The notes under the pieces were generated by a model that was not told where the DNA came from, ran no database searches, and worked only from the letters and a program-made list of their open reading frames with translations. From Flavobacteriales bacterium (GTDB taxonomy: Bacteria > Bacteroidota > Bacteroidia > Flavobacteriales_E > Vicingaceae), in contig JABWCF010000015.1 in the NCBI GenBank assembly GCA_013359255.1, positions 26 to 64,025 of the forward strand: a DNA stretch of 64,000 bases. Reading direction: 5' to 3'. Each line of letters begins with the position of its first letter. The stretch's first letter is position 1. Below are positions 9,095 to 34,686 of the stretch, piece after piece. The position numbers were made by a program, and so were the translations under genes.

Positions 9095-9178
9095 GCACAT
9101 TTGCAAGTCGTGCATTTTTGTTTTTAGGAAAATTTAAAAACAAAAAGTGCACGCCCTTCGGGAAATTTGCAAAAGAGC
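9095..9178. repeat. CACATT...AAAGAG hairpin motif (X1, leader of cassette 1)
   Basis: GCACATTTGC...GCAAAAGAGC with an inner TGCA...TGCA stem. Confidence 0.6.
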
Positions 9179-13233: not shown

Positions 13234-13422
13234 TAAAGACAACCCTATAACAAAAAGATATGCCAAAAAGCAAACGCTCTTTGAAAAAATTCCTCGCTTC
13301 GAAAAAGTTAAATCTTTTCGACCGCTCATTGCCAACAGACAAAAAAGTGTTTCGACAAGGCAAAAAGCGAACAATAAAAACTATAAAAACACTATGAATA
13401 TAGCATTGCGGGACAGAACCAC

Positions 13423-13555: not shown

Positions 13556-13750
13556 AAGTGTATTAAGACAGACACGACAAACAAACGAGTGACAGAAACA
13601 GAAAAAAGTAAACCATTTTGACAGGTGACCAAAAACATAGAAACGATATTACAAACGGACAAGGAGTAAGCCGACACTCATTGCCAACCCTATATTTTTT
13701 ATTTTTTTCCCACCCGGATTTTTTAAAAACAAATTTAAGCCAGCACGCAA

Positions 13751-13812
13751 GTGGCACATTTGGCTTTGCCCCTACCCGCAAAGCCGACCCTTCGCAAAGC
13801 CAAAAGAGCCAC
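13751..13812. repeat. CACATT...AAAGAG hairpin motif (X3, leader of cassette 2)
   Basis: GTGGCACATTTGGCTTTGC...GCAAAGCCAAAAGAGCCAC. Confidence 0.65.
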
Positions 13813-13858
13813 TTATTATCAACGCTGATTTGTAAACAAAATTTACTTTATTGAATAT

Positions 13859-19600: not shown

Positions 19601-22600
19601 CAAATTCATTAAATCTTGCACCACTCATTAAACACTTTGTTGGTTTAGGAATAAATCCAGGTGGTAATGACATTTCATTGCAAACAAGGTTATTGAACAA
19701 CAATTTTGTTCCTTGGTATGACCTTATTGATTTTACAAATTTTCAATGGGCTGCCGGTGCAAACCAAGATTACATTGACGCATTGAAAGAAGGTTCATTT
19801 GATGGACTCGCTACAATATTTTTCGGTTCGCTGTTTTATTCGTTTGAATCTTCCGCATTGGGTTATGTTTGTATAAATCCTGAATTACAGGTTATCACAG
19901 AGCAAGCAAAAACTGTTGCTTTAGCAAAAGATGATTTTTTGCAAATCGTAAATTCCACAATCCGGATTTTGGGTGATAAATACAAACACAACAAAGTTGA
20001 AGATGTAAGTCCATTCAACTTTACGCAATACAACGATTTTCCCGGGCAAGTGAAAAAATACATTCGTGCAGTTGAAACAAGGTATTCAAAAAATCAAAAC
20101 GAAATTGGCGATGCCGTTTTTAATACGCTTTCAACAAGTAGTTTGTTGAGAGGCGACACAGGCATTCAAATTGAAAACCTTTTTATCAAAGTAGCACGTT
20201 CAACGGATTCTATTTGGACAAGTCAAAGAGGAAGCAGACCACACTTGCATTTTAGCGGTGGAATTTGCACTCATTCTGTATCGGCACTGCAACATCAACC
20301 GGACAGAATTTGTGATGATGTTTGGAAAGAAAATTATCTTTCTTACAATGCCATTAAGCAACAACGTGAACCAATCCGTTTGCATTGCGAAGAACTCACC
20401 GGACAAACAGATGACCAATTTGAAAGACAAAGACATTTCAGAAATATCATTTTACCAGATGAAGGCAACAAACAAGTCAAAACAATCGACTTATTGAGCG
20501 TAACAACAACACTTGAAGTTGGAGTTGATATTGGTGCATTGCAAGCCGTGATGTTGGGTAATATGCCACCGCAACGTTTCAACTATCAACAAAGAGTTGG
20601 TCGTGCAGGACGTAGAGGACAAGCGTATTCCGTTATTTTGACATTTTGTAGAGGTAGAAGCCACGATGAGTTTTACTTTGCTAACCCCCAAAAAATTACA
20701 GGCGATGCCCCACCAACACCTTTCTTGACAATGGGACAAGAAAGGATTTTTAAACGTTTGCTTGCAAAAGAAATTTTTCGCAGAGCATACGTTGAAAAAG
20801 AGATTGACATTACTTCTGATGATAAATCAAGTGTTCACGGAGAATTTGGTTCAGTTGATAGTTGGACGATTTACAAACCTGAAATTTCTAATTGGATAAA
20901 TGAAAACAGAACTGTCATCGAACAAACAGTTGATGCATTACTAACGCCACAGCTAAAAGACAAAAAAGATGAATTTGTAAATTGGGTTGCAGATACAACA
21001 ACGCCAAATGGTTTAATTGAAAAAGCAGAAAGCATTATCAAGAATGAAGAAATTGCAAGTAATGACATTTCTGAAAAATTTGCCGAAGGCGGAATTTTGC
21101 CAATGTTTGGAATGCCGACCACAGTTAAAAACTTGTACCACGGTATTAACAGGAAACCAGAACCACTTTCAATTGACAGAGCACAAGCAATGGCAATTTA
21201 TGAATTTGCACCGGGAGCACAGAAAACAAAAGATAAAGCGATTCATCAAGTAATTGGTTTTACAAGCGATTTTATCAATGTTCATAATGGAATTAAAAAT
21301 GCTGACACAGCCAATCAACTTCCCTTTTCACTTAACCGTTGGTTTGTGCGTTGTAGGGCTTGCGGATTTTTTGAAACGTATTCAGAAGAACGAAAAGCAG
21401 AATTGGAGAGTCAAAGTCAATTTGATGTTTGTCCAAATTGTGGTGAAGAGAATCCGAATAAATATCAACCGCCATTTAAACTGAAATCGCCAAGAGCATA
21501 CAGAACAAATCTTTCAGCCGGAAGCGACACGAAAGATGATTCTGAATTTTTGCTTTCACGTCCGCCAATTTTTGCAGAGAAAACCGGTTCAGCAAACGTA
21601 GAAACAATAAGTAACGCTTCAATTTCTATTTCTGATAATGATGTTACTTGGCGTGTGAATACAAATTCTGATAAATTTTTTACAGGAAGATTATACAATA
21701 CAAATAATAAATTTCCTTTTAATCAAAGCGGATTTTGGTTTAACAATCAATGGTTGTTAAATGATTTAGCATTACCAACAAATGACAGCAATGGTCATTC
21801 AATGTTTGTTCAATCAAATCCAACAAGTTCTGATGAACTAATTGCATTAGCCAGCAATAAAAACACCGAAATTTTCCGAATTGCACCAACAAATGTTCCT
21901 TATGAACTTGACTTAAATATGTTTTTTAGCGAAACAGATTTGCCACACGTCAAAGCACAAAGTAACGGAGTGCGTTCCGGTTATTATTCCGCAGCATTTT
22001 TACTTCAAAGAATATTAGCAGACAAACTTGACGTTGACCCTACAGAAATTGAGATTGCGGATATTCCAGTTAAAGTTCTTGAAGACGGAAGAAGAATTGC
22101 TGAAATTATCTTGACTGATGAATTACCAAACGGTTCGGGCTTCGTAAGATATTTATACAACAATCTTGTAAACATACTTTCAGAATCCATAAATCCAAGC
22201 AATTCAGTTAGTTATTTAGGAAAAATTCATTCGGAAACTCATCAAGGAAAATGTGCTGATGCTTGTTATGATTGTTTAAAAGTGTTCCGGAATATGAATT
22301 ATCATAGTTTGCTTGATTGGCGTTTAGGTTTATCAATGCTTCGTGTAATGAATGATTCAACTTTTGTTTGCGGGGCTGACGGAAATTTCAACTTTGTTGA
22401 ATTGCAGAATTGGATTGCATTTGCAACGGAATTAAGAAATGCTTTTGCTCAAAGTTTTGGTTTCTCAAATACAGCCGAGATAAATGATTTGCCAATTATC
22501 AAATTTGGAAGAAATCAAAGAAACGTGATAATGATTGTTCACCCATTTTGGAATATGAGAAATTTCACGGAAGCAAATTGGTTGGCGGAAATTTACAATG

Positions 22601-22707
22601 AAATAAAAGTACATACAGAGAGTAACGGTGGGAAAATTAGCATAATTGACACCTTTAACTTGCATCGCAGACCGGGTTGGTGTTATGAAAAATTAATTGA
22701 GAGATGA
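16684..22707 (+). CDS. giant SF2 DEAD/DEAH-box helicase with Zn motifs and C-terminal DUF1998-like region (DruE-like)
   Basis: SGTGSGKT, YPMNALVEDQ, TNYSML, DELH, SAS, TTTLEVGVDIG, QRVGRAGR; CxxC pairs; CADACYDCL. Confidence 0.85.
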   Translation: MKDPIGSFETIKENFIRYVRTAFRTKFKGVEKERYDLLNYDRVLYRKPWIEPLPDYVSSGKKINDLTAEDLGNALNEGEIETFKGLVNTGLVGNFPLHSHQAEMLKQALLGNNCIITSGTGSGKTESFLLPLFAQLSKELANWTAPNQQSTSINTWWRENGGLSARQIVNTSNFTLSNDVRQRNHETRKAGVRALILYPMNALVEDQMSRLRKALDSDDTRNWLSENTNGNKIYFGRYNGSSPVAGELKKIKDDRTFAINTNKVNQLKEQLQQIETDSNRVAQYIQQTGKTGNEAKDLKSFFQRLDGAEMRSRFDMQVAPPDIMITNYSMLSIMLMRDIDKGIFNETKQWLEESENNIFHLIIDELHLYRGTQGTEVAYLLKLVLNRLGLNPNHPQLRILASSASLEAKEETKEGQESKQFLKDFFGTEKPFKIIEGKNNPITAFPENGIKLPINPFKEIANKFSEVKGNITDVNFISTCEASATQLETAFNLSQDGNGISKLISVIINPSFQLKERLFSPCQDYKAVCSTQANGDDDNGKYFAETIFERTSNKEDLENALRGLLIVRAMLDEKEFEDIAKTIPDDRKLPRFRFHYFFRNIEGIWASVKSDEIDEAYSDEERTVGKLYSTTRINSENGNRVLELLYCDNCGTTLFGGSRLVTRNESGNNSFEMLPISPNIEGIPEKTPAKLVERRSYQEYAVFWACGNQQYTPHDAEAGIPQVGWRQPTMNGFNQTDFLADWIPASLNCISGDIDNSHNKAEEKPEQWIKGYYFIITNNSNRDIALPDANGNISTIETHKALPSVCPSCGVNHQKRRQDWNKNKTSSIRGFRTGFAKTTQMFAKELMYQLPSNEAERKLVVFSDSREDAAQIANGIERNHFSDLMREVLVKELHSNLMFRFQIVDAFDKGNTARQQELKEQSQTIFDEIEFLVENSAYTGTNASRIREKQEAEIKLNEIRSLTLNVRSLVHITNSLNLAPLIKHFVGLGINPGGNDISLQTRLLNNNFVPWYDLIDFTNFQWAAGANQDYIDALKEGSFDGLATIFFGSLFYSFESSALGYVCINPELQVITEQAKTVALAKDDFLQIVNSTIRILGDKYKHNKVEDVSPFNFTQYNDFPGQVKKYIRAVETRYSKNQNEIGDAVFNTLSTSSLLRGDTGIQIENLFIKVARSTDSIWTSQRGSRPHLHFSGGICTHSVSALQHQPDRICDDVWKENYLSYNAIKQQREPIRLHCEELTGQTDDQFERQRHFRNIILPDEGNKQVKTIDLLSVTTTLEVGVDIGALQAVMLGNMPPQRFNYQQRVGRAGRRGQAYSVILTFCRGRSHDEFYFANPQKITGDAPPTPFLTMGQERIFKRLLAKEIFRRAYVEKEIDITSDDKSSVHGEFGSVDSWTIYKPEISNWINENRTVIEQTVDALLTPQLKDKKDEFVNWVADTTTPNGLIEKAESIIKNEEIASNDISEKFAEGGILPMFGMPTTVKNLYHGINRKPEPLSIDRAQAMAIYEFAPGAQKTKDKAIHQVIGFTSDFINVHNGIKNADTANQLPFSLNRWFVRCRACGFFETYSEERKAELESQSQFDVCPNCGEENPNKYQPPFKLKSPRAYRTNLSAGSDTKDDSEFLLSRPPIFAEKTGSANVETISNASISISDNDVTWRVNTNSDKFFTGRLYNTNNKFPFNQSGFWFNNQWLLNDLALPTNDSNGHSMFVQSNPTSSDELIALASNKNTEIFRIAPTNVPYELDLNMFFSETDLPHVKAQSNGVRSGYYSAAFLLQRILADKLDVDPTEIEIADIPVKVLEDGRRIAEIILTDELPNGSGFVRYLYNNLVNILSESINPSNSVSYLGKIHSETHQGKCADACYDCLKVFRNMNYHSLLDWRLGLSMLRVMNDSTFVCGADGNFNFVELQNWIAFATELRNAFAQSFGFSNTAEINDLPIIKFGRNQRNVIMIVHPFWNMRNFTEANWLAEIYNEIKVHTESNGGKISIIDTFNLHRRPGWCYEKLIER

Positions 22708-23777
22708 TGAATAAAATTGGAGAAACGAATTTTAAGGAAATCAAACGTATTTCGCCAAGCCAATTTTATTCAATGAAAAATTGTGCTTACAAATCATTAT
22801 TGGCAGAAGCGTTTGACAAGAAGCCGTTACTTCCACTTTCGCCAAATGCGTATTTCGGCACAGTTTTGCACAAAATGCTTGAGCTGATTGCAAAAGGAAT
22901 TGTGAAAAGTGAAGATGATTTTAATGCGGAATTTGACAAGCAAGTGAAAGCACTTGAAGAAGATTTAAAACAAAAAGGCTTTGGTTTTTTTGTTCCGCTA
23001 AAAGTTAAGTTACGAAATTTTGGGTTGAAGAAAATTCAACTAAAAAAGCATTTGCGAAGCGAATCCGAAAAAATAACAAGTTCAGGTAACATCAAATTTC
23101 ATTCTGAAAAATGGTTTGAATCAAACGACAAATTGATTGGCGGAAAAGTTGATTTAGTGATTGAAAACGGAAACGAAATTGAAATAATTGATTTTAAAAC
23201 CGGAGCAATCACACAAGATTGTTTAGATGATGAAGGCGAAATTTATTCAGATGTAAAGAATGAATACAAAGAACAACTTAAACTTTATGCTTACTTGTAT
23301 TTTGAAAACACAAACAAGTTTCCAACGGACTTGAGTTTGGTGGATTTAGCTAAACAGAAATTTCCGGTTGAGTTTTCAGAAGAAGAATGTAAATCCCTTT
23401 TTGATGAAGCGAAAAGCCTTTTAAAATCTACTAATGATAGCATAAAAACAAAATCATTTTCAGCAAATCCAAAACAAGAAAATTGCAAGTATTGTCTTTA
23501 CAGACCAGCTTGTTCTTTCTTTCATAAGAAACTTGAAACAGATTTTTCTTTCAACGATGTGTTGGGTGAAATTAAAGACGTGAAGAAATTTCAGAATGGA
23601 AATGTGAGTTTATTTTTACAAAATGGAAATATGAATTTAACCATAAAAAATTTTTCTGAGGAAGAATTTGATGAACTAAACAGAAATAAGAACAAACAAA
23701 TTAGAATTTACAATGTAAGAAATGAAGCAAAAGAATTTGTTTATTCTGCTACTGACACGACAATAATTTATGAGTAA
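22704..23777 (+). CDS. RecB/AddB-like PD-(D/E)XK nuclease with a probable 4Fe-4S cluster
   Basis: ISPSQ...NCAYK, GKVD...IDFKTG, QLKLYA, CKYCLYRPAC. Confidence 0.85.
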   Translation: MMNKIGETNFKEIKRISPSQFYSMKNCAYKSLLAEAFDKKPLLPLSPNAYFGTVLHKMLELIAKGIVKSEDDFNAEFDKQVKALEEDLKQKGFGFFVPLKVKLRNFGLKKIQLKKHLRSESEKITSSGNIKFHSEKWFESNDKLIGGKVDLVIENGNEIEIIDFKTGAITQDCLDDEGEIYSDVKNEYKEQLKLYAYLYFENTNKFPTDLSLVDLAKQKFPVEFSEEECKSLFDEAKSLLKSTNDSIKTKSFSANPKQENCKYCLYRPACSFFHKKLETDFSFNDVLGEIKDVKKFQNGNVSLFLQNGNMNLTIKNFSEEEFDELNRNKNKQIRIYNVRNEAKEFVYSATDTTIIYE

Positions 23778-24897
23778 GAATAAAGAACATAAAATTCCGA
23801 TACTTTCTTTTTTTTCCGGAGGAGGATTTATGGATATGGGTTTTGAGCAAGCCGGATTTGAAGTAATTTGGACAAATGAATTTGATGAAATTTTTGCTAA
23901 ACTTCACGCTGCTGGTGTGACTTCCTGGAGAAAATCTAAAGGCAATGGAATTAAAGCGGAAATTTTTAATACTAAATCAATCGTTGAAGTAACATCAAAA
24001 GAAATTGTTTCTGAAGCTTTTCCAAATGGTAAGCCGAAGCATTTTGGAATGATTGGAGGCCCGCCTTGTCAGGACTTTAGTATGAATGGTTCATTAAAAG
24101 GTTTTGGTGGAGAAAGAGGAAAACTTACAATTGTTTACTTTGATAAAATCTTGGAATTAAAACCAACGTTTTTCGTTATGGAAAATGTAACCGGTTTAAC
24201 AAAAAGAAAAGACACAAAAGAATATTTACAAACGCTGTTGAAGCGAGTTGAAAAAGAATACTACGTTGACCACGAAAAACTTAATTCGTTGAATTATGGT
24301 GTACCGCAACACAGAGAACGTGTATTTTTTATAGGTATTAGAAAAGATTGTTTGAACAAACAAGCCATTGAACAAGCTCTGTTTGGTAAATGGTTCCCGT
24401 TTCCTGTAAACGAGAAATATCAGGATTCTGCGACAAAGTATAATTGGGGGAAACAAGTTTCTTTTGGGAACAAATTGAAAAAACCGGAAGATGTTCCTTT
24501 TGAATTGTGTGTTGAAAGCTGTTTAGTTCCAAATAGTAAAATTGATGTAATTCCGAATGCGAATGAGGTATTTACCTTATACAAGCCTATATCTGAATTA
24601 AATAAAATAGCTGAAGGTGAAACGAATAGACCATCATTTAAACGACTTCATCGTTTTAAATACAGTCCGACAGCTTGCTACGGAAATAACGAAGTTCATT
24701 TGCACCCATATTTAAATAGACGTTTATCTGCGAGGGAGGCTCTAAGAATACAAGGTGTGCCTGATGAATATATACTTCCGTCAGAAATTTCATTATCGAA
24801 GAAATTTAAAATGATTGGTAATGGTGTTCCTGTTCCATTAGCAAAAGCAGTAGCAGAATCATTAAAAGACTTTTTATTTACAAATGAAATCATTTAA
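23770..24897 (+). CDS. DNA (cytosine-5)-methyltransferase
   Basis: FSGGG, GGPPCQDFS, ENV, QHRERVF, GNGVP motifs. Confidence 0.93.
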   Translation: MSKNKEHKIPILSFFSGGGFMDMGFEQAGFEVIWTNEFDEIFAKLHAAGVTSWRKSKGNGIKAEIFNTKSIVEVTSKEIVSEAFPNGKPKHFGMIGGPPCQDFSMNGSLKGFGGERGKLTIVYFDKILELKPTFFVMENVTGLTKRKDTKEYLQTLLKRVEKEYYVDHEKLNSLNYGVPQHRERVFFIGIRKDCLNKQAIEQALFGKWFPFPVNEKYQDSATKYNWGKQVSFGNKLKKPEDVPFELCVESCLVPNSKIDVIPNANEVFTLYKPISELNKIAEGETNRPSFKRLHRFKYSPTACYGNNEVHLHPYLNRRLSAREALRIQGVPDEYILPSEISLSKKFKMIGNGVPVPLAKAVAESLKDFLFTNEII

Positions 24898-24909
24898 ATC
24901 CCTCAATAT

Positions 24910-24977
24910 TTTGCAAGCACATTGCCGAAGCTCCACAACCCTAGCACAGACCAAAGCTTTGTCAAAGAGCTTGCAAA
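24910..24977. repeat. CACATT...AAAGAG hairpin motif (X4, trailer of cassette 2)
   Basis: TTGCAAGCACATTG...CAAAGAGCTTGCAA. Confidence 0.65.
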
Positions 24978-25136
24978 GCCAACGCAAGAAAAATTGTTTT
25001 TAAAAAATGTCCCGACCCATCAAAAAATAAAAAACGCTATGCACAACCCGACTCAGATAGACAAAAAAGCAAACGGACAATGACACTGAAACTCAACACT
25101 GACAATGGTTTACAAAGACGAACAGACAGTACACCA

Positions 25137-25272
25137 GCTGCCAACAGCCGTTTTGCAAAAGCGGGGTTTTCGTGCTTATATGACAGTGAAGTGCTAAATT
25201 CAAGCTTTGTGCATCTAATGAAGTTTAGTGCTGAAAATCCCCGCCTTCGCAAAGCGGCAAAACGTTACCGCC
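25137..25272 (+). repeat. attC-like site C
   Basis: GCTGCCAAC-A-GCCGTTTTGCAAAAGCGGGG...CCCCGCCTTCGCAAAGCGGC-AAAAC-GTTACCGCC. Confidence 0.88.
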
Positions 25273-25334
25273 AATGCTAAAAAAACAACGACAGTGAACA
25301 AAATGAACGACAGAGATAAAATGCCGACCGCACA

Positions 25335-25395
25335 TTCAAGCACATTTGGTTTTTACCGACACGCAAAGCCAAACCAAAAACCAAAAGAGCTTGAA
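25335..25395. repeat. CACATT...AAAGAG hairpin motif (X5, leader of cassette 3)
   Basis: TTCAAGCACATTTGGTTTTT...AAAAACCAAAAGAGCTTGAA. Confidence 0.65.
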
Positions 25396-25422
25396 TTTTG
25401 CCAACACGCAGACATAAAAATA

Positions 25423-25430
25423 TAAATTTG
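25423..25430 (+). promoter_or_regulatory. Bacteroidota -7 box inside cassette 3
   Basis: TAAATTTG ends 4 nt before the ATG at 25435. Confidence 0.45.
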
Positions 25431-25434
25431 AAGA

Positions 25435-26415
25435 ATGAAAGAAAACAAAATATTCTATGAAACCGACCTTGGGAAACTACTCCTTACAGACTCTTACAAA
25501 GAGTTAAAGAATGGTTCATTGAAAAAATATAAGGGCAAGATAAATCTAATTATTACCTCACCACCGTTTCCATTAAACAACAAGAAAAAATATGGAAACC
25601 TTCAAGGTGAAGAATACAAAGAGTGGTTTGTTAGTCTTGCTCCTATCTTTGAAGAATTATTAGCTGATGATGGTTCACTTGTTATTGAAATCGGGAATGC
25701 TTGGGAATCTGAACGACCTGTACAGTCACTTTTACATTTAGAATGTTTACTTGGGCTTGTTCAAAATTCCAATCTAAGATTAATACAGGAATTTATATGT
25801 TACAATCCTTCAAAACTTCCTTCCCCAGCTCAATGGGTAACAGTTAATCGTATTAGGACAGTAGACAGCTATACTCATATATGGTGGCTTGCCAAATCAG
25901 ACTACCCAAAGGCTGATAACACAAAAGTTTTGCGACCTTACAGCAAGAGTATGAAACAACTTCTCAAAAATCAAAAATATAACTCAGGAAAACGACCTTC
26001 GGAACACATCATTTCAGAAAATGGATTTCTGAAAGATAATGGAGGAAGCATTGCTCATAATTTTTTTGAAATGGAGCCAATTGATGAAAATAGAGAGGTT
26101 AGACTGCCTCACAGTGTTTTGAGCTTTTCAAATACACATTCAAACGATTACTATCTGAAAGCTTGTAGAAAGAATGATATAATTCCTCACCCTGCAAGAA
26201 TGAATCAAGGAATTGTTAGTTTTTTTATCAATTATTTGACTGATGAAAAAGACTTAGTTTTAGACCCTTTCGCAGGTAGTAATACAACCGGGGCAACAGC
26301 TGAAAAGCTCAACAGAAAATGGTTGGCAATGGAGATTGACCGAGAATTTGCAGACCAATCAATTTACAGATTTGAAGATAAAGAACTTAATGCCGAACTT
26401 AAAATCCACTTTTAA
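25435..26415 (+). CDS. beta-class amino-MTase, M.PvuII-like (probably N4-cytosine)
   Basis: TSPPF catalytic motif before the DPFAGS SAM motif; NPSKLPSP, KDNGGS and HPAR segments as I recall them in M.PvuII. Confidence 0.85.
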   Translation: MKENKIFYETDLGKLLLTDSYKELKNGSLKKYKGKINLIITSPPFPLNNKKKYGNLQGEEYKEWFVSLAPIFEELLADDGSLVIEIGNAWESERPVQSLLHLECLLGLVQNSNLRLIQEFICYNPSKLPSPAQWVTVNRIRTVDSYTHIWWLAKSDYPKADNTKVLRPYSKSMKQLLKNQKYNSGKRPSEHIISENGFLKDNGGSIAHNFFEMEPIDENREVRLPHSVLSFSNTHSNDYYLKACRKNDIIPHPARMNQGIVSFFINYLTDEKDLVLDPFAGSNTTGATAEKLNRKWLAMEIDREFADQSIYRFEDKELNAELKIHF

Positions 26416-28421
26416 TGCTTGACGTAATAAAAAAAATAACAGACATTGACTTCTTTAAAGAAGGACAGAATGAAGACCTTTTTGTGGGTAGACCTTACTC
26501 GATAAACTACAATAAAGCTAATCTACTTATTTCAGATTTTTGGAAACATAAAGTAAAAGGAATACCACAAGGTTCTTTCTTGTTGGCATTTTACGACAAT
26601 CCATTTGAAGAAAATATTCAAGAAGCTTTACTCCTTCGAGTGTTAAACCCTTCTTCACTACCCACTGACAATAATGTCATTTCGTCAATGATTGAGTATT
26701 ACAAAGACAATCTTAATACATCAGGCAAAAAGAGTGAACTAGACGATTTTACTAGATATGAATTTAGTTTTTCGGGTTTGGAATGTAGAATCTTAGGCGC
26801 ATTCTACAAGGAGGGTAATTCTTTTGAATTTGGCGCTGACGTAGAAAATTTTTATTCGGCTCACAACTACAAAGTTTTTAAAGCAACCTCGAAAATTTTA
26901 GAGCTTATTGTAAATCAAAGAGACAAAGATTTAGTAGCAGGTGGAGAGAATGAATTTCCCATAGGTACAGTTCGTTATAGCTCGACTAGACGTTTCTATG
27001 CTACTGATGATTCCGTTAAAAGTGTTAAGGTATTTATTAATCCAGGTGATATGCTTGGAAAGCGAACCGCTCTTTTCGGTATGACTAGAACAGGTAAGTC
27101 CAACTCTGTTAAGAAAATAATTGAAGCTTCTGTTGAAATATCTAGAAAATCAAAATATAAAACGTTAAGCACCACTTCAAGTCCAACTGACAACCTTATG
27201 GAAGCAATTGATAAGGAATCAGGTGCACCGAAATTTCCTGTTGGTCAAATTATTTTTGATATAAATGGTGAATACGCCAATGCTAATATGCAGGATAAGG
27301 GTACTGCAATATTTGAATTGTACTCTGACATTACTACAAGATTTTCGACCTTGCCCAAAACGGATTTCAAAATTATGAAGGTTAACTTCTATAATGATTT
27401 AGAAGCAGGATTCGAGCTTGTTCGATCTCACTTATTACAAAGTTCGGGTAACTATATAGAAAGTTTTTGTGCTGTTGACTTTACTCCACCCGAGAATTAT
27501 GATTTTTTCAGCTCTGAGGGCACTCGTCACGATAGATTAAAAGCTGCTTATTTCTGCTGCCTTTATAAAGCCAATATTCCAGTTCCAAAGAATTTCAAAG
27601 TTAAGTTTCGTGGCAATGACATACTAAATAAGTTGGTAAAAGAAGATGGCTCAATAAAACCAGACAACGGAATTTCACTTGAAGATGCTTACAATTGGTT
27701 CAAAGCTGTTGCAGATAATTATAATACTCACGAATACTTTAGTAAATATAAAGCTCAAAAGGGTCACGAATGGGCAGACGAAGATCTAAAAGCAGTACTA
27801 GTATTTCTTTCAAGAAAAAAAGACGGTAGAGTTGTAGATGGATATGTTAAACTTAGAAGCTTAAAGGAACTACATACAGAGACAATCGACAAACCTTTTG
27901 ATGCTGAGATAATTGATGAGTTAAGAAAAGGTAAGATTGTCATTATTGATTTGTCTCAGGGAAATCCTGAAATTCAACAACTATATTCAGAGCGAATTTG
28001 TAAGAAGATATTCAATGATTCTATGAATAGATTCATTTCAAACTCACCCAACAATTTCATCCAATTCTATTTTGAAGAGGCTCATAATTTGTTTCCTAAA
28101 AAGGACGACAAAGATTTAAGTCAAATATATAACCGAATTGCCAAGGAAGGTGCAAAATTGAATCTTGGGATGATTTACGCAACGCAAGAAGTTAGCTCTA
28201 TAAGTTCTAACATACTAAAAAACACTCAAAATTGGTTTATTGCACACTTAAACAACGAAGATGAAACTAGGGAACTTAAAAAGTATTACGACTTTGAAGA
28301 TTTTACAGAATCACTAGTTCGTTTTAGTGCTAAAAATGACAAAGGTTTTGTGAGAATGAAAACATATTCAAACCCGTTTGTTGTACCAGTCCAAATAGAC
28401 CAATTTTTAGCAAACAAGTAA
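26415..28421 (+). CDS. herA: HerA/FtsK-family ATPase (DUF87)
   Basis: GMTRTGKS Walker A, FDINGEY, FEEAHN Walker B, ATQ; N-terminal HAS-barrel-like region. Confidence 0.85.
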   Translation: MLDVIKKITDIDFFKEGQNEDLFVGRPYSINYNKANLLISDFWKHKVKGIPQGSFLLAFYDNPFEENIQEALLLRVLNPSSLPTDNNVISSMIEYYKDNLNTSGKKSELDDFTRYEFSFSGLECRILGAFYKEGNSFEFGADVENFYSAHNYKVFKATSKILELIVNQRDKDLVAGGENEFPIGTVRYSSTRRFYATDDSVKSVKVFINPGDMLGKRTALFGMTRTGKSNSVKKIIEASVEISRKSKYKTLSTTSSPTDNLMEAIDKESGAPKFPVGQIIFDINGEYANANMQDKGTAIFELYSDITTRFSTLPKTDFKIMKVNFYNDLEAGFELVRSHLLQSSGNYIESFCAVDFTPPENYDFFSSEGTRHDRLKAAYFCCLYKANIPVPKNFKVKFRGNDILNKLVKEDGSIKPDNGISLEDAYNWFKAVADNYNTHEYFSKYKAQKGHEWADEDLKAVLVFLSRKKDGRVVDGYVKLRSLKELHTETIDKPFDAEIIDELRKGKIVIIDLSQGNPEIQQLYSERICKKIFNDSMNRFISNSPNNFIQFYFEEAHNLFPKKDDKDLSQIYNRIAKEGAKLNLGMIYATQEVSSISSNILKNTQNWFIAHLNNEDETRELKKYYDFEDFTESLVRFSAKNDKGFVRMKTYSNPFVVPVQIDQFLANK

Positions 28422-28424
28422 GGT

Positions 28425-29759
28425 ATGTCATACAACAAAACAGGAAACAGGCCATTTGAATTTGCTAGTAAGAGCAACCATATTCATATTATCAAAGACC
28501 CAGAAGTTCAGAAGTTTTTAAGCCAACACGAACTTCCCAAAGAGGGTGATGAAATTTCTCTATTTGACCATTATTTGGTGGATATAAATTATGATGTTGC
28601 AGATTCTGTAGAATTCATTATAGCAGTAGATGGAGGTGATACAACAGTTCCAGTCAAATCAAAATTCCCTTCTTCAACAATAACCTTTTTTCAGTTTGGG
28701 GCTAACTTATTGAAAATTTCAGACCTTAAAGAATTGAGGGAGCAACCTTTCATTTCTCCACAATCAATCTCAAAACTAAAAGAATTACAGCGGATAAAAT
28801 TTACCTTACCGACCAAGAACATTGGCTTAATTGATGAAAATGGTAAACGAGCAACACTGACTTATTCTGTCAGAAAAGCCCTTTATGAATTTTTCAAACA
28901 ACACGATTTCCTATCAACTTTGAAATGGTTTCTTTTTGAAGAGTACAAGAAAAATCCAAAGTCGGAAAGAGAACTTGCAAGCCACCCAAATAATTCTGCT
29001 ACAAAGAAAGTGGTTATTCAAAGAGATAAAATCAATTCCGAATATAAAATACCACACGCAGACGGTGATTTGTTTTTGACAGATATTTTTAGGCTTCACG
29101 AAGTAGTGGATGAAGATTTAGGTGCAGGAGGTATTGTTGGCTATTTAAGAAATTTGATTGAACATTTCATTCTGATTGACACCATTAGAGGATTGTATAG
29201 AGTTAAGAAAGATACCTTAAAAGAGGTGTTATTTGTAAAAGATGGCCCATTAGGTTTCTTTGGACAAACTGCGAATATGCACGAGCCTATGAGAGAATTG
29301 TTGAATCACCTTAATTCTGAATTAAATATCTTTTTAGCAGGAATAGAAAAATCAGGTCCTTTTGTAGAGCACGCATTGGAAATTAAAGATAAAATTAAGC
29401 AAGGACAGGCGTATTTACTTTCAAACAAGCACATTTACAAGTATATAAAGCCGGGTGACTCTGACAATCCAGAAGCGTATGGACGTTCCTCATATTATGG
29501 CAGCAAAGTAATTTTTAAGTCCAGAGATGAAAGAATTTACGTGGTGACTATTCCTACTGAGAAAAGTGAAGTAGTTCTTAATCCTATCAAGTCGGACTTC
29601 AAGCACATTGACATCATAATGAAATACATTGAACGACTAAAAAGTGATATGTATGATAATTCTCTTTTACCGATTGCACTTGCAAACAAACTTGTTTCAC
29701 TTTCAGACCATCCAAGCTCTGTTTTACTTGAAAAGTTTGCTAAACACAATATAAAGTAG
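28425..29759 (+). CDS. nurA: NurA-family nuclease
   Basis: IAVDGG, VKDGPL, GIEKSG motifs; directly downstream of HerA. Confidence 0.75.
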   Translation: MSYNKTGNRPFEFASKSNHIHIIKDPEVQKFLSQHELPKEGDEISLFDHYLVDINYDVADSVEFIIAVDGGDTTVPVKSKFPSSTITFFQFGANLLKISDLKELREQPFISPQSISKLKELQRIKFTLPTKNIGLIDENGKRATLTYSVRKALYEFFKQHDFLSTLKWFLFEEYKKNPKSERELASHPNNSATKKVVIQRDKINSEYKIPHADGDLFLTDIFRLHEVVDEDLGAGGIVGYLRNLIEHFILIDTIRGLYRVKKDTLKEVLFVKDGPLGFFGQTANMHEPMRELLNHLNSELNIFLAGIEKSGPFVEHALEIKDKIKQGQAYLLSNKHIYKYIKPGDSDNPEAYGRSSYYGSKVIFKSRDERIYVVTIPTEKSEVVLNPIKSDFKHIDIIMKYIERLKSDMYDNSLLPIALANKLVSLSDHPSSVLLEKFAKHNIK

Positions 29760-29787
29760 ATTATGAAAATGCTAATGCTTCACAGCC

Positions 29788-29844
29788 ACACACATTGCCA
29801 AGTCGCTCAAGCCGACACGCAAGCCAAAACTTGGCAAAGAGTGT
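29788..29844. repeat. CACATT...AAAGAG hairpin motif (X6, trailer of cassette 3)
   Basis: ACACACATTGCCAAGT...ACTTGGCAAAGAGTGT. Confidence 0.65.
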
Positions 29845-29897
29845 GTCTGTCCAACTGCGCAACCGACAGACAAACGGACGAAGAAAAAGAAGCACTA

Positions 29898-30035
29898 GGC
29901 GGTAACATCACCTATACGCAAGCAGGGGTTTCGTGCTTCGTAGGACAGGTAAGTGCCAAATTTGAAGTTCAGTTCTTCGTAGGAAGTTCAGTGGTTAAAA
30001 TCCCTGCCTGCGTATAGCTGAATCCCGTTGTGCGT
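29898..30035 (+). repeat. attC-like site D
   Basis: GGCGGTAAC-A-TCACCTATACGCAAGCAGGG...CCCTGCCTGCGTATAGCTGA-ATCCC-GTTGTGCGT. Confidence 0.88.
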
Positions 30036-30091
30036 CAGTGTAAAAGCGACAACCCGACAAGTAAAAACGAATGACAAAACATATTAATTGA

Positions 30092-31771
30092 ATGACCGAA
30101 CACGAAAAATTTAAAAAACTTCTAGAATACTTTGTGACCCATCTTGAATGGCTCATAAATAACGATACAAATAATCGTGGTTACAATTTATACCTAAAAC
30201 CACTAATTGATAAAAATGAATTTTACTCTACTGGACAGGGTTACAATAACGGAAACATACAAAAACATATTGCTGAATGGTGTCACTATGAGAATGGCGA
30301 CATATTTATTAACATTCAGTCGAATTATGGAAATTACAAGACTGTTAAATGTTATTTAAACTGGGCTGACACAGGATTGAATGTTATCGCTCGTTGGAAT
30401 GACAACAAAATTAATTCACTTGCTTTAGAAGAGTATCAATTTTGGCTTAAACCAACAAAAAGAATTGATTTAGGAATCAATAAGTCAATAACAGAACTTG
30501 GTCTCTTTGACAATAATACACCGAATGAGAGTTTAAAAGATTTCTTCAATCAGTTCGAAAAGTTAATCATTGATTGGAACATAAAAGAACAAAATGAAGC
30601 TCAAATGAAAAAAATTCAACCATACTTAGATTTGCTTAAATCATCCAAAAACATAATCCTTACAGGTGCTCCTGGAACGGGTAAAACATTTTTAGCGAAA
30701 CTAATTGCAAGACAACTGATTGGAGTAAAAACCGATGACGAATTAGAAGAAAGTGGACAATTTAATTTTGTACAATTCCATCCTTCTTATGACTACACAG
30801 ACTTTGTTGAAGGACTGAGACCGACTCCACCTGATGAAAACGGAATAATCGGTTTTGAGATAAAAGACGGAATTTTTAAATCATTTTGCCAAAAGGCATC
30901 TGAGGCAAATTTTTCAGAAATAGTAGACAATTTTGATGTGGCTTGGGAAAATCTTTTGTCTGCGATTAGAAACAATATAGGACAAGGAAATTTAACCAAT
31001 ATCGGTTCTTGGGATTATGGTCTATCATCAAAAGACTCATTGAAATACACATCAGTTGATACACCCTCACAATATAATTTTACAATAACGAAAAAAAATG
31101 TTTACGATGCCTATCAAGGTAAGAAAGCAAGACCCTCCGGTGCTTTTCAAAAGGATATGGAAGATGTCGTAAATTATTTGAAAGCACATTTCAATTTAGT
31201 CGATTTTGTGGCAGGACAGGAAAATTCAACAAATGGATTAAAATACTTTGTTTTTGTCATTGACGAAATTAATAGAGGTGAAATCTCAAAAATATTTGGA
31301 GAATTATTCTTTTCGATTGACCCAAGTTATAGAGGTAAAAAAGGTGCAGTTAAAACTCAATATTCTAATTTACATAATGATGAAAAAGAGGTTTTTTATG
31401 TACCCGAAAATGTTTACATAATCGGCTCAATGAATGACATCGACAGGAGTGTTGAAAGTTTTGATTTTGCAATGCGAAGACGTTTTACTTGGATTGAGAT
31501 TACAGCAGAACAAAGTGCCGATAATATGAATTTGCCACAAGACATTAAAGAAAGAATGTTGAGGTTAAACAAGCAAATTTCTGAAACAGAAGGTCTTAAT
31601 CCTTCTTACCACATTGGCGCAGCTTACTTCTTAGATTCAAATGGTAATGCAAGACAAGACATTGACAACATTTGGAATTTACGAATCGAGCCACTTCTGA
31701 AAGAGTATTTGAGAGGAATGCCTGACAGCATTGATAAAATTGAACTTTTGAAAAATGCCTTTACAGCCTGA
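30092..31771 (+). CDS. mcrB: McrB-family AAA+ GTPase
   Basis: GAPGTGKT, FHPSYDYTDFVEG, IDEINRG, MNDID (NxxD), DFAMRRRF. Confidence 0.9.
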   Translation: MTEHEKFKKLLEYFVTHLEWLINNDTNNRGYNLYLKPLIDKNEFYSTGQGYNNGNIQKHIAEWCHYENGDIFINIQSNYGNYKTVKCYLNWADTGLNVIARWNDNKINSLALEEYQFWLKPTKRIDLGINKSITELGLFDNNTPNESLKDFFNQFEKLIIDWNIKEQNEAQMKKIQPYLDLLKSSKNIILTGAPGTGKTFLAKLIARQLIGVKTDDELEESGQFNFVQFHPSYDYTDFVEGLRPTPPDENGIIGFEIKDGIFKSFCQKASEANFSEIVDNFDVAWENLLSAIRNNIGQGNLTNIGSWDYGLSSKDSLKYTSVDTPSQYNFTITKKNVYDAYQGKKARPSGAFQKDMEDVVNYLKAHFNLVDFVAGQENSTNGLKYFVFVIDEINRGEISKIFGELFFSIDPSYRGKKGAVKTQYSNLHNDEKEVFYVPENVYIIGSMNDIDRSVESFDFAMRRRFTWIEITAEQSADNMNLPQDIKERMLRLNKQISETEGLNPSYHIGAAYFLDSNGNARQDIDNIWNLRIEPLLKEYLRGMPDSIDKIELLKNAFTA

Positions 31772-33090
31772 TGAGAACAACCGACAATAATGGCGGAAAA
31801 AGTATTGATAAATCCGACAATTTAAACATTGCCGATTTATCAGAAATAGCAAATAGAAACCTTTTGGATTTACAAATAGAAAATCCTGATTTGCTTGTTT
31901 TTCCTCATTCATTTGGTAAATATCAAGACGATGTTGAAAAACCTCATATTTTCTCACTAGACAGTGAAAACCTGACAACATACAATCTAATGGGTTTTAT
32001 TGGCCGAAATTCAACACAACTTACAATTTCATCACGCTTTGCCAAAGATGAAAACAACGATTATTTTTTGCATTATATGTTGCAAAAAGTCTTTTCGATT
32101 AACCTTTTAAAATTTGACCAAACACCCAATAAAGAGAACATTTGGGATTTTCTTCTTTACCTTTTTCCGTACTATCTCAAAAAAGCTTATTCTCAAGGAA
32201 TCTACAAAGCATACAAAAAGGAGGAATACAATGACACTAACGTCAAGGGAAGTATTGATGTTAAACGCCATATTCTTAGAAACATTCCGTTTACAGGAAA
32301 AATAGCATATACTACAAGAGAGCACAGCTATGATAATAATTTAACACAACTAATTAGACATACAATTGAGTTCATCAGAAACCACCCTTATGGCAGTGGA
32401 GTACTAACGGGTGACAGCGAACTAAGAGACATTGTGAGTAAATTTATTTTTGTAACTAATAAGACCTACAATGGTAATTCGAGACAAAAGATTATTACAG
32501 CCAATTTAAAACCAGTTACTCATCCTTATTTTACGGAGTATTCTGCGTTGCAGAAAATTTGTTTAAAAATTCTTCGTCACGAGAAAATTACATTTGGCAA
32601 AGAAAAAGATAAAGTTTACGGATTGTTGTTTGATGGTGCTTGGCTTTGGGAAGAGTACCTTAATATCATTCTAAAAGAAAACTTCATTCATCCAGAAAAC
32701 AAAACAGGGAAACATCGACAATACCTATTTGAAAACAATATACAATCAATATTTCCTGATTTCATCAGCAAACTTGAACCAAAATCTGTCGGGGATGCAA
32801 AGTATATTCCACTTGACAGACAACAATCATATTCAGAAAATTCCGAAAAGGCAACAAGCATTTACTACAAGACAATTGCTTATATGTACAGGTTTAGTTC
32901 AAAAAATGGTTTTTTAATCTTCCCAAGACAAGACACGAGCTTTTTTGAAACATACCGCATAAAAGAGACAGACGGAACACTAAATAAAATTGGACTTGCA
33001 ATTCCACAGACAACAGAAAACTTTAAAGATTATATAAAAACAATGAACTTTAATGAAGAAGAATTGAGACAACATTTAATGACAAACTAA
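31771..33090 (+). CDS. mcrC: McrC-family nuclease subunit
   Basis: Coupled to McrB; LWEEY, PDF...DAKY PD-(D/E)XK motif. Confidence 0.85.
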   Translation: MRTTDNNGGKSIDKSDNLNIADLSEIANRNLLDLQIENPDLLVFPHSFGKYQDDVEKPHIFSLDSENLTTYNLMGFIGRNSTQLTISSRFAKDENNDYFLHYMLQKVFSINLLKFDQTPNKENIWDFLLYLFPYYLKKAYSQGIYKAYKKEEYNDTNVKGSIDVKRHILRNIPFTGKIAYTTREHSYDNNLTQLIRHTIEFIRNHPYGSGVLTGDSELRDIVSKFIFVTNKTYNGNSRQKIITANLKPVTHPYFTEYSALQKICLKILRHEKITFGKEKDKVYGLLFDGAWLWEEYLNIILKENFIHPENKTGKHRQYLFENNIQSIFPDFISKLEPKSVGDAKYIPLDRQQSYSENSEKATSIYYKTIAYMYRFSSKNGFLIFPRQDTSFFETYRIKETDGTLNKIGLAIPQTTENFKDYIKTMNFNEEELRQHLMTN

Positions 33091-33097
33091 ACACCGA

Positions 33098-33234
33098 ACG
33101 CACAACAGGCGTTTGGCTCAATGGCGGTTGAAGTGGTTAATTGAACATTCTACCTCGTATCAACTTTTGTGGTGTATTGACAGTTTTGTGCTCCGAAATC
33201 CGCCACTGCGCCAAGCGCCAAAACGTTATGTGAT
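33098..33234 (+). repeat. attC-like site E
   Basis: ACGCACAAC-A-GGCGTTTGGC...TGGCGG...CCGCCA...GCCAAGCGCC-AAAAC-GTTATGTGAT. Confidence 0.88.
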
Positions 33235-34309
33235 ATAATAAAAAGACGACCAACAAAAGATGATAGACATAATTGGAGACATTCACGGACACGCAGACAA
33301 ACTCGAAGAGTTGCTTTTAAAGTTAGGTTATACAAAAAATAACGGGACATATTTACATCCAGACAGAAAAGTGTTGTTTGTTGGAGACTATATTGACAGG
33401 GGACCAAAAATCAGAGAAACACTTCAAATAGTAAGAGCAATGGTGGACAGTGAAAATGCCATTGCAATAATGGGAAATCACGAATACAATGCACTATGTT
33501 TTCATTTCCAAGAAACCGAAGGCGGACACCTCAGAAAACATTTAATCAAAAATATTATTCAACATTACGAGACGCTCAAACAATTTCAAAATAGACAGAA
33601 GGAATATGAAGACTATTTGGACTGGTTTAAGACATTACCACTTTACTACGAAACCGACACTTTCAAAGCTGTTCACGCCTGTTGGGATAACAAAAACATT
33701 GAATATTTAAGAAACATTTTAGTAAATGACAGACTTACTGACGAACTTATTTATCAATCAGTTAAGAAAGGAACGGAATTAAATGAAGCAATAGACCAAA
33801 CACTTAAAGGCAAAGAAATGAAAATGCCGGAGGGGCTTTACTTTACTGACAAAGACGGAACAAAAAGAACTGAAATAAGAATAAAGTGGTGGGAAGACCC
33901 AGCAACTATGACTTACAAATCTATTAGTGTTGAACCAATCGATAATTTACCAGAGAAACCAATTGAATTATCAGAATTAAAATCGCTTGACTTTTACAGA
34001 GACAATGATAAAAAAGTATTCTTTGGACACTATTGGCTTAAAGGAGAACCTTCCCTATACAAGGAAAATATTTGTTGTTTAGATTACAGCATTGCAAAAG
34101 GTGGAAAACTTGTTGCTTACCGATTAAATGGAGAGACAGAATTAAACAGTAAAAATCTAACTTATGTCTAAAAGAATTACATCACATAACAGCCGTTTTG
34201 CGTCAGGCGGGGTGACGTGCAAACTTGAAGGTTTGTGCTCCTATTTAGCTTTGGTGCAGGTTGACAGCTTAGTGCTTCTATGCCCGCCCGACCGCAAAGC
34301 CGCAAACCG
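33226..34309 (+). mobile_element. cassette 5 (1084 bp): metallophosphoesterase
   Basis: Starts G|TTATGTGAT and is closed by ATCACATAAC at 34181 (10/10 complement). Confidence 0.82.
33260..34171 (+). CDS. calcineurin-like metallophosphoesterase (PPP/ApaH-like)
   Basis: GDIHG, GDYIDRG, GNHE, HAC, FGHYW, CLD motifs. Confidence 0.9.
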   Translation: MIDIIGDIHGHADKLEELLLKLGYTKNNGTYLHPDRKVLFVGDYIDRGPKIRETLQIVRAMVDSENAIAIMGNHEYNALCFHFQETEGGHLRKHLIKNIIQHYETLKQFQNRQKEYEDYLDWFKTLPLYYETDTFKAVHACWDNKNIEYLRNILVNDRLTDELIYQSVKKGTELNEAIDQTLKGKEMKMPEGLYFTDKDGTKRTEIRIKWWEDPATMTYKSISVEPIDNLPEKPIELSELKSLDFYRDNDKKVFFGHYWLKGEPSLYKENICCLDYSIAKGGKLVAYRLNGETELNSKNLTYV

Positions 34310-34311
34310 AT
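34181..34311 (+). repeat. attC-like site F
   Basis: ATCACATAAC-A-GCCGTTTTGCGTCAGGCGGG...CCCGCCCGACCGCAAAGCCGC-AAACC-G|AT. Confidence 0.85.
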
Positions 34312-34485
34312 AGAACGCAACCCTTACTCCAGAAAAGCAGACCCTCCCACCGGTCGGGATCTCTTCTCCACAACGCTTCGTTGCGTTCTATCGGTCAGGG
34401 CTTCTCGTTCCGAATATCCGCAACCCTGCGGGATGCGTCTATCAATGGCTTATCGCCATTGAAACGGAACGACAAGCCCGGACCG
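34310..34485 (+). mobile_element. cassette 6 (176 bp): ORF-less mini-cassette with G|AT core and a distinct palindromic site
   Basis: GATAGAACGCAAC (34309) complements GTTGCGTTCTATC (34380); CGGTCAGGGCTTCTCGTTCCG pairs with CGGAACGACAAGCCCGGACCG (19/21). Confidence 0.7.
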
Positions 34486-34686
34486 TTAGCGGTAATTATT
34501 ATTGACAGTTATTGCTATTATGTTAAGGCATCCCATAACGACAAAAAATGAGAAAAATAATATCCCGTTTATAAGGACATTAAAATCCAACTTTATCAGA
34601 GCGACTAAACCAAAAACAATAACTGCAATGACATAAGAAATACCAAGCCACTTCCAATCAATAGATTTTACAATATTTTGTATCAT
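34486..34686 (-). CDS. small membrane protein
   Basis: 66 aa with two hydrophobic helices; start overlaps the Fic stop; its TAA stop is the complement of the TTA of the cassette core. Confidence 0.55.
   Translation of the reverse strand: MIQNIVKSIDWKWLGISYVIAVIVFGLVALIKLDFNVLINGILFFSFFVVMGCLNIIAITVNNNYR

Follow-up and report, generated by a model that had tools for sequence, protein, structure and literature searches.

A methylase-HerA-NurA gene cassette between attC-like sites as a candidate restriction-modification-like defence system

The 64,000-nucleotide stretch of Flavobacteriales DNA analysed here (contig JABWCF010000015.1 of assembly GCA_013359255.1; termed the window, and numbered from its first letter) contains a 4.76-kb unit that is filled by three coupled genes, for a DNA methyltransferase, a HerA-like ATPase and a NurA-fold nuclease, with an attC-like hairpin site at each end. 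Judged from its sequence, this cassette probably encodes a self-contained, ATP-dependent and methylation-based restriction-modification (RM)-like defence system. A preliminary description of the same DNA had proposed such a role, and the conservation of the methylase with its partners and the defence genes around them support it; the function is a predicted one and the principle is not unprecedented, as a characterised analogue, the HerA/NurA-like TdpAB, which restricts DNA lacking phosphorothioate, already exists.

Three coupled genes fill one cassette

The features of the cassette are as follows.

25131..25274, plus strand: upstream attC-like site, an imperfect hairpin of ~144 nt in which ..CAAC is the 5' box and CGTTA the 3' box; repeat family D2
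25335..25395, plus strand: leader hairpin of a second repeat family, between boundary and promoter (-15.7 kcal/mol, z = -4.2)
25397..25430, plus strand: promoter-like motif of Bacteroidota type, TTTG-N22-TAAATTTG, ending 4 nt before the ATG
25435..26415, plus strand: DNA methyltransferase of the beta-class N4C/N6A family, 326 aa, with TSPPF as motif IV and DPFAGSNTTG as motif I
26415..28421, plus strand: HerA/FtsK-class ATPase, 668 aa, with a DUF87/HerA match at 2.7e-12
28425..29759, plus strand: NurA-fold (RNase H/PIWI-like) nuclease, 444 aa, assigned from a predicted model and Foldseek
29788..29846, plus strand: trailer hairpin of the second repeat family, beginning 29 nt past the NurA stop (-22 kcal/mol, z = -3.35)
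29892..30037, plus strand: downstream attC-like site (115 bits with covariance model R1), folding as single-stranded DNA with z = -3.25

The three open reading frames (ORFs) are co-directional and tightly packed between 25435 and 29759, the methylase and HerA ORFs overlapping by 1 nt and the HerA and NurA ORFs being separated by 3 nt, which bears out the coupled three-gene operon of the preliminary description. The claim that this operon fills a single cassette was also correct. The cassette limits, 25265 and 30027, coincide with the G|TT crossover points of the two attC-like sites (25264|25265, within the site 25131..25274, and 30027|30028), and the copy in L001, a Cytophagales metagenome-assembled genome (MAG), is 94.5% identical to the window but only across 25261-29907, with unrelated flanks. 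Sites of the R1 type also lie beside the cassette in L002, L003 and L008, and copies with 91-94% identity in their DNA are present in MAGs whose assigned orders or phyla differ. As for an integron cassette, the same unit is thus found in different contexts and bounded by sites; the triad is inherited together as one mobile unit. An 84-codon ORF at 29763-30017 was rejected as a gene: it lies inside the trailer hairpin and attC-like site and has no family match.

The methylase gene is conserved with the HerA-NurA pair

Eighty genome loci were fetched, 72 of which had enough upstream DNA to judge methylase linkage. The 80 loci came from Bacteroidota, Ignavibacteriota, Chlorobiota, Chloroflexota, Bacillota, Actinomycetota, Deinococcota, Planctomycetota, Spirochaetota, Pseudomonadota, Cyanobacteria, several candidate-phyla-radiation (CPR) groups and Methanosarcinales. 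The methylase was present in 64 of the 72 informative loci (Bacteroidota, Chloroflexota, Bacillota, CPR, Planctomycetota, Deinococcota, Pseudomonadota and Methanosarcinales among them) and stood directly upstream of HerA in 63, so that the order of the triad was kept in 63/72 loci from more than 15 phyla, archaea included. In the 56 intact triads (55 related loci and the window) the gaps were mostly between -3 and +30 nt, and the genes were co-directional in all except L021. The pairwise distances of the three proteins were correlated, more strongly by the Pearson coefficient (0.64-0.84) than by rank (0.25-0.57).

When 300 Bacteroidota genomes were sampled, a close orthologue of the nuclease was found in three (~1%), and in each of these the linked methylase was also present, with 73-84% identity; in a further twelve genomes there was a PvuII-family methylase and no nuclease. 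Thus the association of the methylase with HerA-NurA, on which the preliminary description had depended, was upheld in both samples (64/72 loci and 3/3 orthologue carriers). The nearest relatives of the window are Bacteroidota MAGs; its G+C content is ~35% and two of its proteins have the Por_Secre_tail sorting domain of the type IX secretion system.

The methylase is of the PvuII family and belongs to a separate clade

The methylase matched PF01555 (4.7e-30), the PADLOC MTase_II model (1.2e-84) and, over its full length, M.PvuII (PDB 1boo; 6.2e-67, ~50% identity). ITSPPF (motif IV) precedes DPFAGSNTTG (motif I), which is the motif order of the beta class, and by its sequence the protein carries all of the catalytic motifs; the SPPF motif suggests N4-cytosine methylation. 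In a maximum-likelihood tree the HerA-linked methylases formed one clade with 100/100 support, and the sister clade, also supported at 100/100, contained M.PvuII, the methylase associated with Bpu10I and unlinked Nostoc methylases. Because the linked enzymes lie in a clade separate from M.PvuII, neither N4-methylcytosine (m4C) as the product nor CAGCTG as the target is established for them. The designation M.PvuII-like in the preliminary description therefore stands at the level of the family but not as orthology.

In one genome (locus L095, G121:C3:177000-185000) a methylase of the HerA-linked clade was found between genes for proteins of 582 and 767 aa. Neither neighbour had a PADLOC match, the 767-aa protein also had no Pfam match, and the genome had no NurA-like gene; here the methylase clade may have a restriction partner other than HerA-NurA.

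The ATPase and nuclease are most similar to TdpA and TdpB

The ATPase has a Walker A motif (GMTRTGKS, 222-229), a Walker B motif (FYFEEAH, with FEEAH at 553-557), R574 and an ATQ sensor (589-591), and the Walker A motif, FEEAH, R574 and ATQ591 were invariant columns among the HerA-like proteins of the family. An arginine finger together with a glutamine sensor is the signature of HerA/FtsK (PMC10853773). TdpA was the best match in the PDB for the single sequence (1.7e-17) and for the family profile (9.6e-21), and also the top Foldseek match (8wet_A, 1.7e-16); blastp against Thermaceae TdpA gave 24.5% identity over 530 aa (E=1.5e-19). The HerA models of PADLOC matched the protein only partially.

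For the nuclease there was no match in Pfam, NCBIfam or PADLOC, and phmmer against the PDB gave only E values of 0.23-0.56, TdpB being marginal at E=0.55. Because direct sequence detection failed, a structure model was needed for the NurA assignment. The AlphaFold model, made from 26 homologues, had a predicted local distance difference test score (pLDDT) of 79 and a predicted template modelling score (pTM) of 0.79, and its Foldseek matches were all of the NurA fold: TdpB (8wfd_G, E=1.6e-8), Deinococcus radiodurans NurA (7f6d_G, 6.9e-6) and the archaeal NurA structures 3tai, 2ygk and 9x1m. Profile alignment with TdpB (hhalign) gave 83% probability and E=8.7e-6 over 188 columns. Invariant residues of the nuclease are D69 (in AVDGGD), E226, D273 (in VKDGPL), H316 and H429, and D69, E226, D273 and H316/H429 occur in the same order as Asp51, Glu105, Asp126 and His411 of Pyrococcus furiosus NurA (PMC3300031), to which they may correspond residue by residue.

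A Cys-containing, ribbon-like insertion (residues ~185-215) was present in 46 of 55 members of the nuclease family, 38 of which have two CxxC motifs and the rest one. In the subclade of the window (the window itself and L001-L008) all four ribbon cysteines are replaced (SHP...H.DGD) and the zinc ribbon is lost; the region is still modelled in the window nuclease as two confident beta-hairpins. The family comprises more than 1,500 clusters at 90% identity and, at 50% identity, 880 clusters at E<=1e-3 or 251 at E<=1e-30.

The boundary sites have the traits of integron attC sites

A 34-nt repeat found by a repeat search of the window proved to be the 5' arm of a ~144-nt imperfect hairpin, copies of which lie on the plus strand at 13418, 25131, 29892, 33091, 34176, 35506 and 36541. 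Covariance model R1 scored the site 25131..25274 at 136.5 bits, and the site at 13418 was recovered de novo (84 bits) with a model made from the other six. Covariation was assessed with 36 attC-like sites, from the host genome plus four related loci. Compensatory changes were seen in 18 of 20 stem pairs, and 88% of cells were paired versus 63% in shuffles and <=43% when the partners were slid, in an alignment that was model-fitted and so inflates pairing somewhat. The AAC box was present in 36/36 sites and GTT in 34-36/36, the terminal boxes (T)AACA and CGTTA being near-invariant. A covarying hairpin with near-invariant terminal boxes is what defines integron attC sites, and the sites described here have both the structure-conserved imperfect hairpin and the terminal AAC/GTT core boxes.

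No tyrosine recombinase or integrase gene was found in the window. In the host genome the best hit to the integron integrase model TIGR02249 scored 206 bits, below the cut-off of 265, and only Xer-like recombinases were detected; the best candidate is itself Xer-like, without the IntI-specific middle segment, and lies beside tRNA genes at a contig end.

The attC-like site that follows NurA in L001-L003 (L001:6507-6650) is 94% identical to the site that follows McrBC in the window (33091-33235) and is dissimilar to the window's own post-NurA site (29892-30037), which suggests exchange or homogenisation of sites between cassettes. One further site, 34176-34319, ends in G|AT, not G|TT.

A promoter-like motif and paired hairpins accompany the genes

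The preliminary description had given the operon its own promoter box. The motif is present, with TAAATTTG at 25423-25430, TTTG 22 nt upstream of it and the ATG 4 nt downstream, and ATAAATTTG is kept at -12 in five close relatives (L001, L002, L003, L005 and L008). TTTG-N17-23-TANNTTTG was not enriched in the window, however (7 found versus 7.8 expected by chance). Because this frequency equals chance, the support for the box comes from its position and its conservation in close relatives. A promoter ending 4 nt before the ATG would imply a leaderless or near-leaderless mRNA.

The leader and trailer hairpins belong to a second repeat family, with copies in the window at 9095, 13196, 13751, 24910, 25335, 29788 and 36804, in which a fixed C-ACAUU...AAAGAG frame surrounds variable, complementary (covarying) stems; the copies at 13751, 24910 and 29788 fold like that at 25335. 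These hairpins bracket the cargo of the large cassettes, with one leader and one trailer copy each. In L005 homology to the window runs from hairpin to hairpin (25324-29850) and an attC-like site was not detected, which may mean that the hairpins are part of the cargo and not of the array. They may act as transcriptional insulators or terminators.

The cassette lies among other defence genes

The upstream neighbour, a cassette of 11.7 kb between two attC-like sites (13558-25264), is a complete Druantia-type system, with a DruF/DruL fusion (942 aa), DruE (2007 aa, 1925 bits), a DruK-like PD-(D/E)XK nuclease and the C5 methylase DruM (1e-152). It is unusually large for an integron-type cassette. 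The downstream neighbour (30028-33226) is McrBC, which thus lies close to two cassettes with cytosine-methylase-type genes, for the C5 enzyme DruM (23770-24897) and the PF01555 enzyme (25435-26415). McrBC of Escherichia coli attacks DNA containing either 5-methylcytosine or m4C; if the McrBC of the window has this specificity, it must tolerate the marks of its own host. A Fic/DOC-domain gene (34683-35477, minus strand) is the only cassette cargo opposite in strand to the attC-like sites.

The host genome has 29 attC-like sites in six clusters, located as follows.

Window, 13418-36687
Contig C2, 11890-47059
Contig C18, 110189-122713
Contig C9
Contig C12
Contig C16

Nine of the ten largest ORFs sampled from the C2 and C18 arrays had PADLOC matches (NsnA, viperin-like, Type II methylases, MkoA, PLD nucleases, a Type III endonuclease and a DpdF-like helicase). 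The attC-like cassettes mostly carry defence-type genes.

Distant HerA-NurA pairs adjoin other modification genes

HerA-NurA pairs with 25-37% identity to those of the window also adjoin methylases, which belong to other families and are differently placed. A Dam-like D12 methylase is upstream of the pair in L087, L090 and the Thermaceae locus L119, a PF01555 methylase is downstream in L088 and L089, and four Bacteroidota genomes are among those with an adjacent Dam-like or other PF01555 methylase. On a Deferribacter megaplasmid the methylase is upstream of the pair and HerA is split by an insertion sequence element; on a plasmid of the haloarchaeon Halorarius it is downstream; and in a temperate phage of Vibrio it is on the opposite strand to HerA-NurA, beside the phage integrase.

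Three Thermaceae loci (L116, L114 and L118) proved to be Tdp proper, with TdpC, TdpB and TdpA. The proteins are near-identical to the PDB chains (1240 bits to TdpA, 8wet_A, and 796 bits to TdpB), and the gene upstream of TdpB was identified as TdpC because of its PAPS-reductase domain (PF01507). The sampled Thermaceae genomes hold three versions of the system, with phosphorothioate, Dam-like-methylase and PvuII-like-methylase modification. Another Thermaceae locus, L117, has genes for NurA (PF09376), a HerA-like protein and a DruA-domain protein in a row, and may be a further HerA-NurA defence variant.

Discussion

In the mechanism that we propose, the methylase would be the first product of the operon to be translated and would mark the host DNA by methylating one short, fixed sequence. 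The HerA-like protein would form a hexameric ring that docks a dimer of the NurA-like protein, as in TdpA6-TdpB2 and HerA6-NurA2, and this complex may load on DNA, translocate at the expense of ATP and feed the DNA to the nuclease, so degrading it processively. TdpA is reported to sense the sulfur of phosphorothioate, and by analogy methylated self sites could keep the complex from loading or halt it as it translocates; DNA of a phage or plasmid that enters without the mark would then be destroyed. The cassette, which has its own promoter-like motif and flanking hairpins, passes from genome to genome as a unit bounded by attC-like sites. We rejected a Type IV (methylation-dependent) system, as the operon's own methylase would make the host DNA its target.

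Several observations weigh against this proposal. Eight of the 72 informative loci have no cognate methylase, six of them being from Nostocales or Gemmataceae with HerA and NurA intact. On related, annotated Nostocales plasmids, of Tolypothrix (L099) and Calothrix (L101), the gene order is XRE-HerA-NurA with XRE directly upstream. In Nostocales, therefore, HerA-NurA can persist without the marker, which is unexpected if all unmarked DNA is attacked, and these loci speak most strongly against the simple view that a cell without the methylase dies. The host genome shows no special shortage of CAGCTG: 220 sites were counted versus 290 expected, and this observed/expected ratio of 0.76 is mid-range among 6-mer palindromes, which makes avoidance of the site uninformative as a test of PvuII-like specificity. 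In addition, a ring translocase would have to read base methylation that is present only every few kilobases, and a Thermus operon of similar gene content has been assigned experimentally to DNA donation, not to defence (PMC5365140).

A PvuII-family methylase is encoded elsewhere in six of the eight methylase-less genomes. The idea that an unlinked cognate methylase serves these loci was rejected: the four such enzymes that were included in the tree fell with M.PvuII and the Bpu10I-associated enzymes, outside the linked clade, and one adjoins a Bpu10I endonuclease. The other Nostocales loci (L061, L063, L069 and L070) also have no cognate methylase, and in L069 a CD-NTase/SAVED (CBASS-like) pair lies directly downstream.

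An alternative that keeps the defence function, and that we consider unlikely, makes the methylase a subunit of the restriction complex, which would find the sequence to be methylated as well as the sequence to be cut. Type I and Type III systems work in this way; here the motor would be a HerA ring, and the methylase would recruit HerA-NurA to unmethylated sites. It would fit the unusual conservation of the methylase, which extends over its full length and across phyla, the presumed target-recognition region included (mean pairwise identity across phyla 63%; column conservation of 79-89% in 20-residue blocks over residues 121-200). The linked methylases are also a single clade tied to one HerA-NurA clade, stop-start overlaps of methylase and HerA are common, HerA and NurA both have no obvious sequence-reading domain, and the pairing of diverged HerA-NurA clades with different methylase families is expected if the partners are co-adapted. 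Against these points, distant relatives have the methylase downstream of the pair or on the other strand, the Nostocales clade is entirely without a cognate methylase, and the solved TdpAB complexes act without the modifier TdpC, according to the titles of the PDB entries.

Some of the same observations bear on the improbable alternative that the cassette is mainly selfish, a post-segregational-killing (addiction) module that stabilises the array or carrier element, with phage defence secondary or absent. According to the introduction of one preprint (bioRxiv 10.1101/2024.07.02.601686), RM and toxin-antitoxin cassettes do stabilise integron arrays, and the triad is a discrete mobile cassette that is also found on plasmids and in a prophage. 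An addiction role would, however, be compatible with defence rather than exclusive of it, and the Nostocales loci, where HerA-NurA has been kept without a methylase, speak against strong toxicity on methylase loss.

The Thermus precedent is the basis of a third alternative, that the genes are a DNA-processing or export module of a mobile element. The operon of ICEth1 in Thermus thermophilus encodes Tth111II, a NurA-like protein, TdtA and a PF01555-family methylase, and mutants in the NurA-like nuclease and in the HerA-like TdtA lose DNA donation, or 'transjugation' (PMC5365140). The window cassette has no integrase, type IIG endonuclease, conjugation or competence genes, sits among defence cassettes and has a gene order unlike that of ICEth1, so that we regard this role as very improbable for it.

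That the pair is a housekeeping HerA-NurA module for double-strand-break end resection beside an unrelated orphan methylase is hardly credible: NCBI labels its relatives 'DNA double-strand break repair nuclease NurA' and the model agrees with a NurA fold, but only ~1% of Bacteroidota genomes carry the pair, which is horizontally mobile, bounded by attC-like sites, without Mre11/Rad50 in its cassette, linked to a methylase across phyla and closest to TdpA/TdpB, not to repair HerA/NurA.

The restriction-modification-like reading can be extended into a broader proposal, which seems to us evenly balanced between right and wrong. There may be a large, cross-domain class of ATP-dependent RM systems in which a HerA ring translocase and a NurA nuclease replace the endonuclease, with clades co-adapted to different methylase families (PvuII-like beta-class, Dam-like D12 and other PF01555 enzymes), Tdp being one specialised branch and the member in this genome being attC-bounded in integrase-less arrays that serve as defence banks. 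If so, HerA-NurA machines would read base methylation, and not phosphorothioation alone, as the mark of self, and restriction would proceed by processive destruction of DNA, not by site-specific cutting; how a ring translocase could sense a methyl group in a specific sequence is the mechanistic question that this raises. The family is large (880 nuclease clusters at 50% identity, from bacteria, archaea, plasmids and a prophage), and NCBI and genome pipelines label its members as NurA repair proteins, DUF87 proteins or orphan methylases, so defence inventories would undercount it. Multi-gene defence systems of up to 11.7 kb between attC-like sites, in a Bacteroidota genome without a recognisable integron integrase, would also take the idea of the integron as a defence biobank beyond Vibrio.

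Comparison with known systems

As the preliminary description had recommended, we checked whether the system is already catalogued. PADLOC 2.0 gave generic methyltransferase matches and partial HerA matches, with nothing for the nuclease and no system-level match for methylase-HerA-NurA. No methylase-HerA-NurA defence system is described in the full-text literature that was searched, and NurA-methylase operons are absent from the Aravind-laboratory papers that deal with HerA 'capture' systems. New here are the packaging of the triad between attC-like sites, the phylogeny of the methylases, the exchange of one methylase family for another in distant clades, the Nostocales clade that has no cognate methylase, the direct comparison with Tdp loci and the ICEth1 alternative.

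In its packaging the cassette resembles those of the sedentary chromosomal integrons of Vibrio, in which whole defence systems are carried as promoter-bearing cassettes between attC sites (bioRxiv 10.1101/2024.07.02.601686). It differs in that its host is one of the Bacteroidota, a group in which integrons had not been found, as that preprint implies; there is no integrase nearby, the cassettes reach very large sizes (4.8 kb for the triad, 11.7 kb for Druantia), and the sites, at ~144 nt, have additional internal repeat structure.

The tdtA operon of ICEth1, compared by its description only, likewise combines NurA-like and HerA-like proteins with a PF01555-family methylase on a mobile element. 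ICEth1 has in addition a type IIG endonuclease, an integrase and a different gene order, and its role is DNA donation. The context of an integrative and conjugative element (integrase, att repeats, type IIG endonuclease) was not found at the window cassette.

Sir2-HerA (Nezha) and HerA-DUF4297 build their defence complexes on a HerA hexamer, such as is proposed for the cassette, and they are among the Foldseek matches for the ATPase. They have no methylase, however, and act by abortive infection, not by the marking of self and non-self; neither a Sir2 (NADase) nor a DUF4297 (nuclease) effector domain was found in the window.

Canonical HerA-NurA (Sulfolobus, Pyrococcus, Thermococcus and Deinococcus) also consists of an adjacent HerA-class ATPase and NurA-fold nuclease, and the order of the catalytic residues is the same. 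The window pair, in contrast, is methylase-linked, patchy in distribution, mobile and closer to TdpAB. It has no Mre11-Rad50 partner, neither gene being present in the cassette, and does not show the vertical distribution of a housekeeping function. A calcineurin-like phosphoesterase gene at 33260-34171 belongs to a separate cassette and has no Rad50 gene adjoining.

The likeness to Type II RM systems of the PvuII type lies in the methylase, which is ~50% identical over its full length to M.PvuII and is a beta-class N4C/N6A methyltransferase with the same motif order and the SPPF and FxGxG motifs. No R.PvuII-like or other site-specific endonuclease and no C-protein was found in the cassette, and its proposed mode of restriction is ATP-dependent and processive.

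The closest likeness is to TdpABC of thermophiles, for which cryo-electron microscopy structures of TdpAB are available (8wet, 8wfd and 8y1k). The similarity is remote, with 24.5% identity for HerA and an alignment confined to the C-terminal half of NurA, and the window proteins exceed their counterparts by 70-80 residues; the genes stand in the order modifier-HerA-NurA in the window and modifier-NurA-HerA in Tdp. Homologues of TdpA and TdpB are present and the phosphorothioate-forming TdpC is not, the modifier here being a beta-class PF01555 methyltransferase instead of a PAPS-reductase-type phosphorothioation enzyme. Both systems nevertheless set a HerA-like ATPase, hexameric in Tdp, and a NurA-like nuclease beside a single DNA-modifying gene, and TdpA and TdpB are the best relatives of the window's ATPase and nuclease in sequence and in fold.

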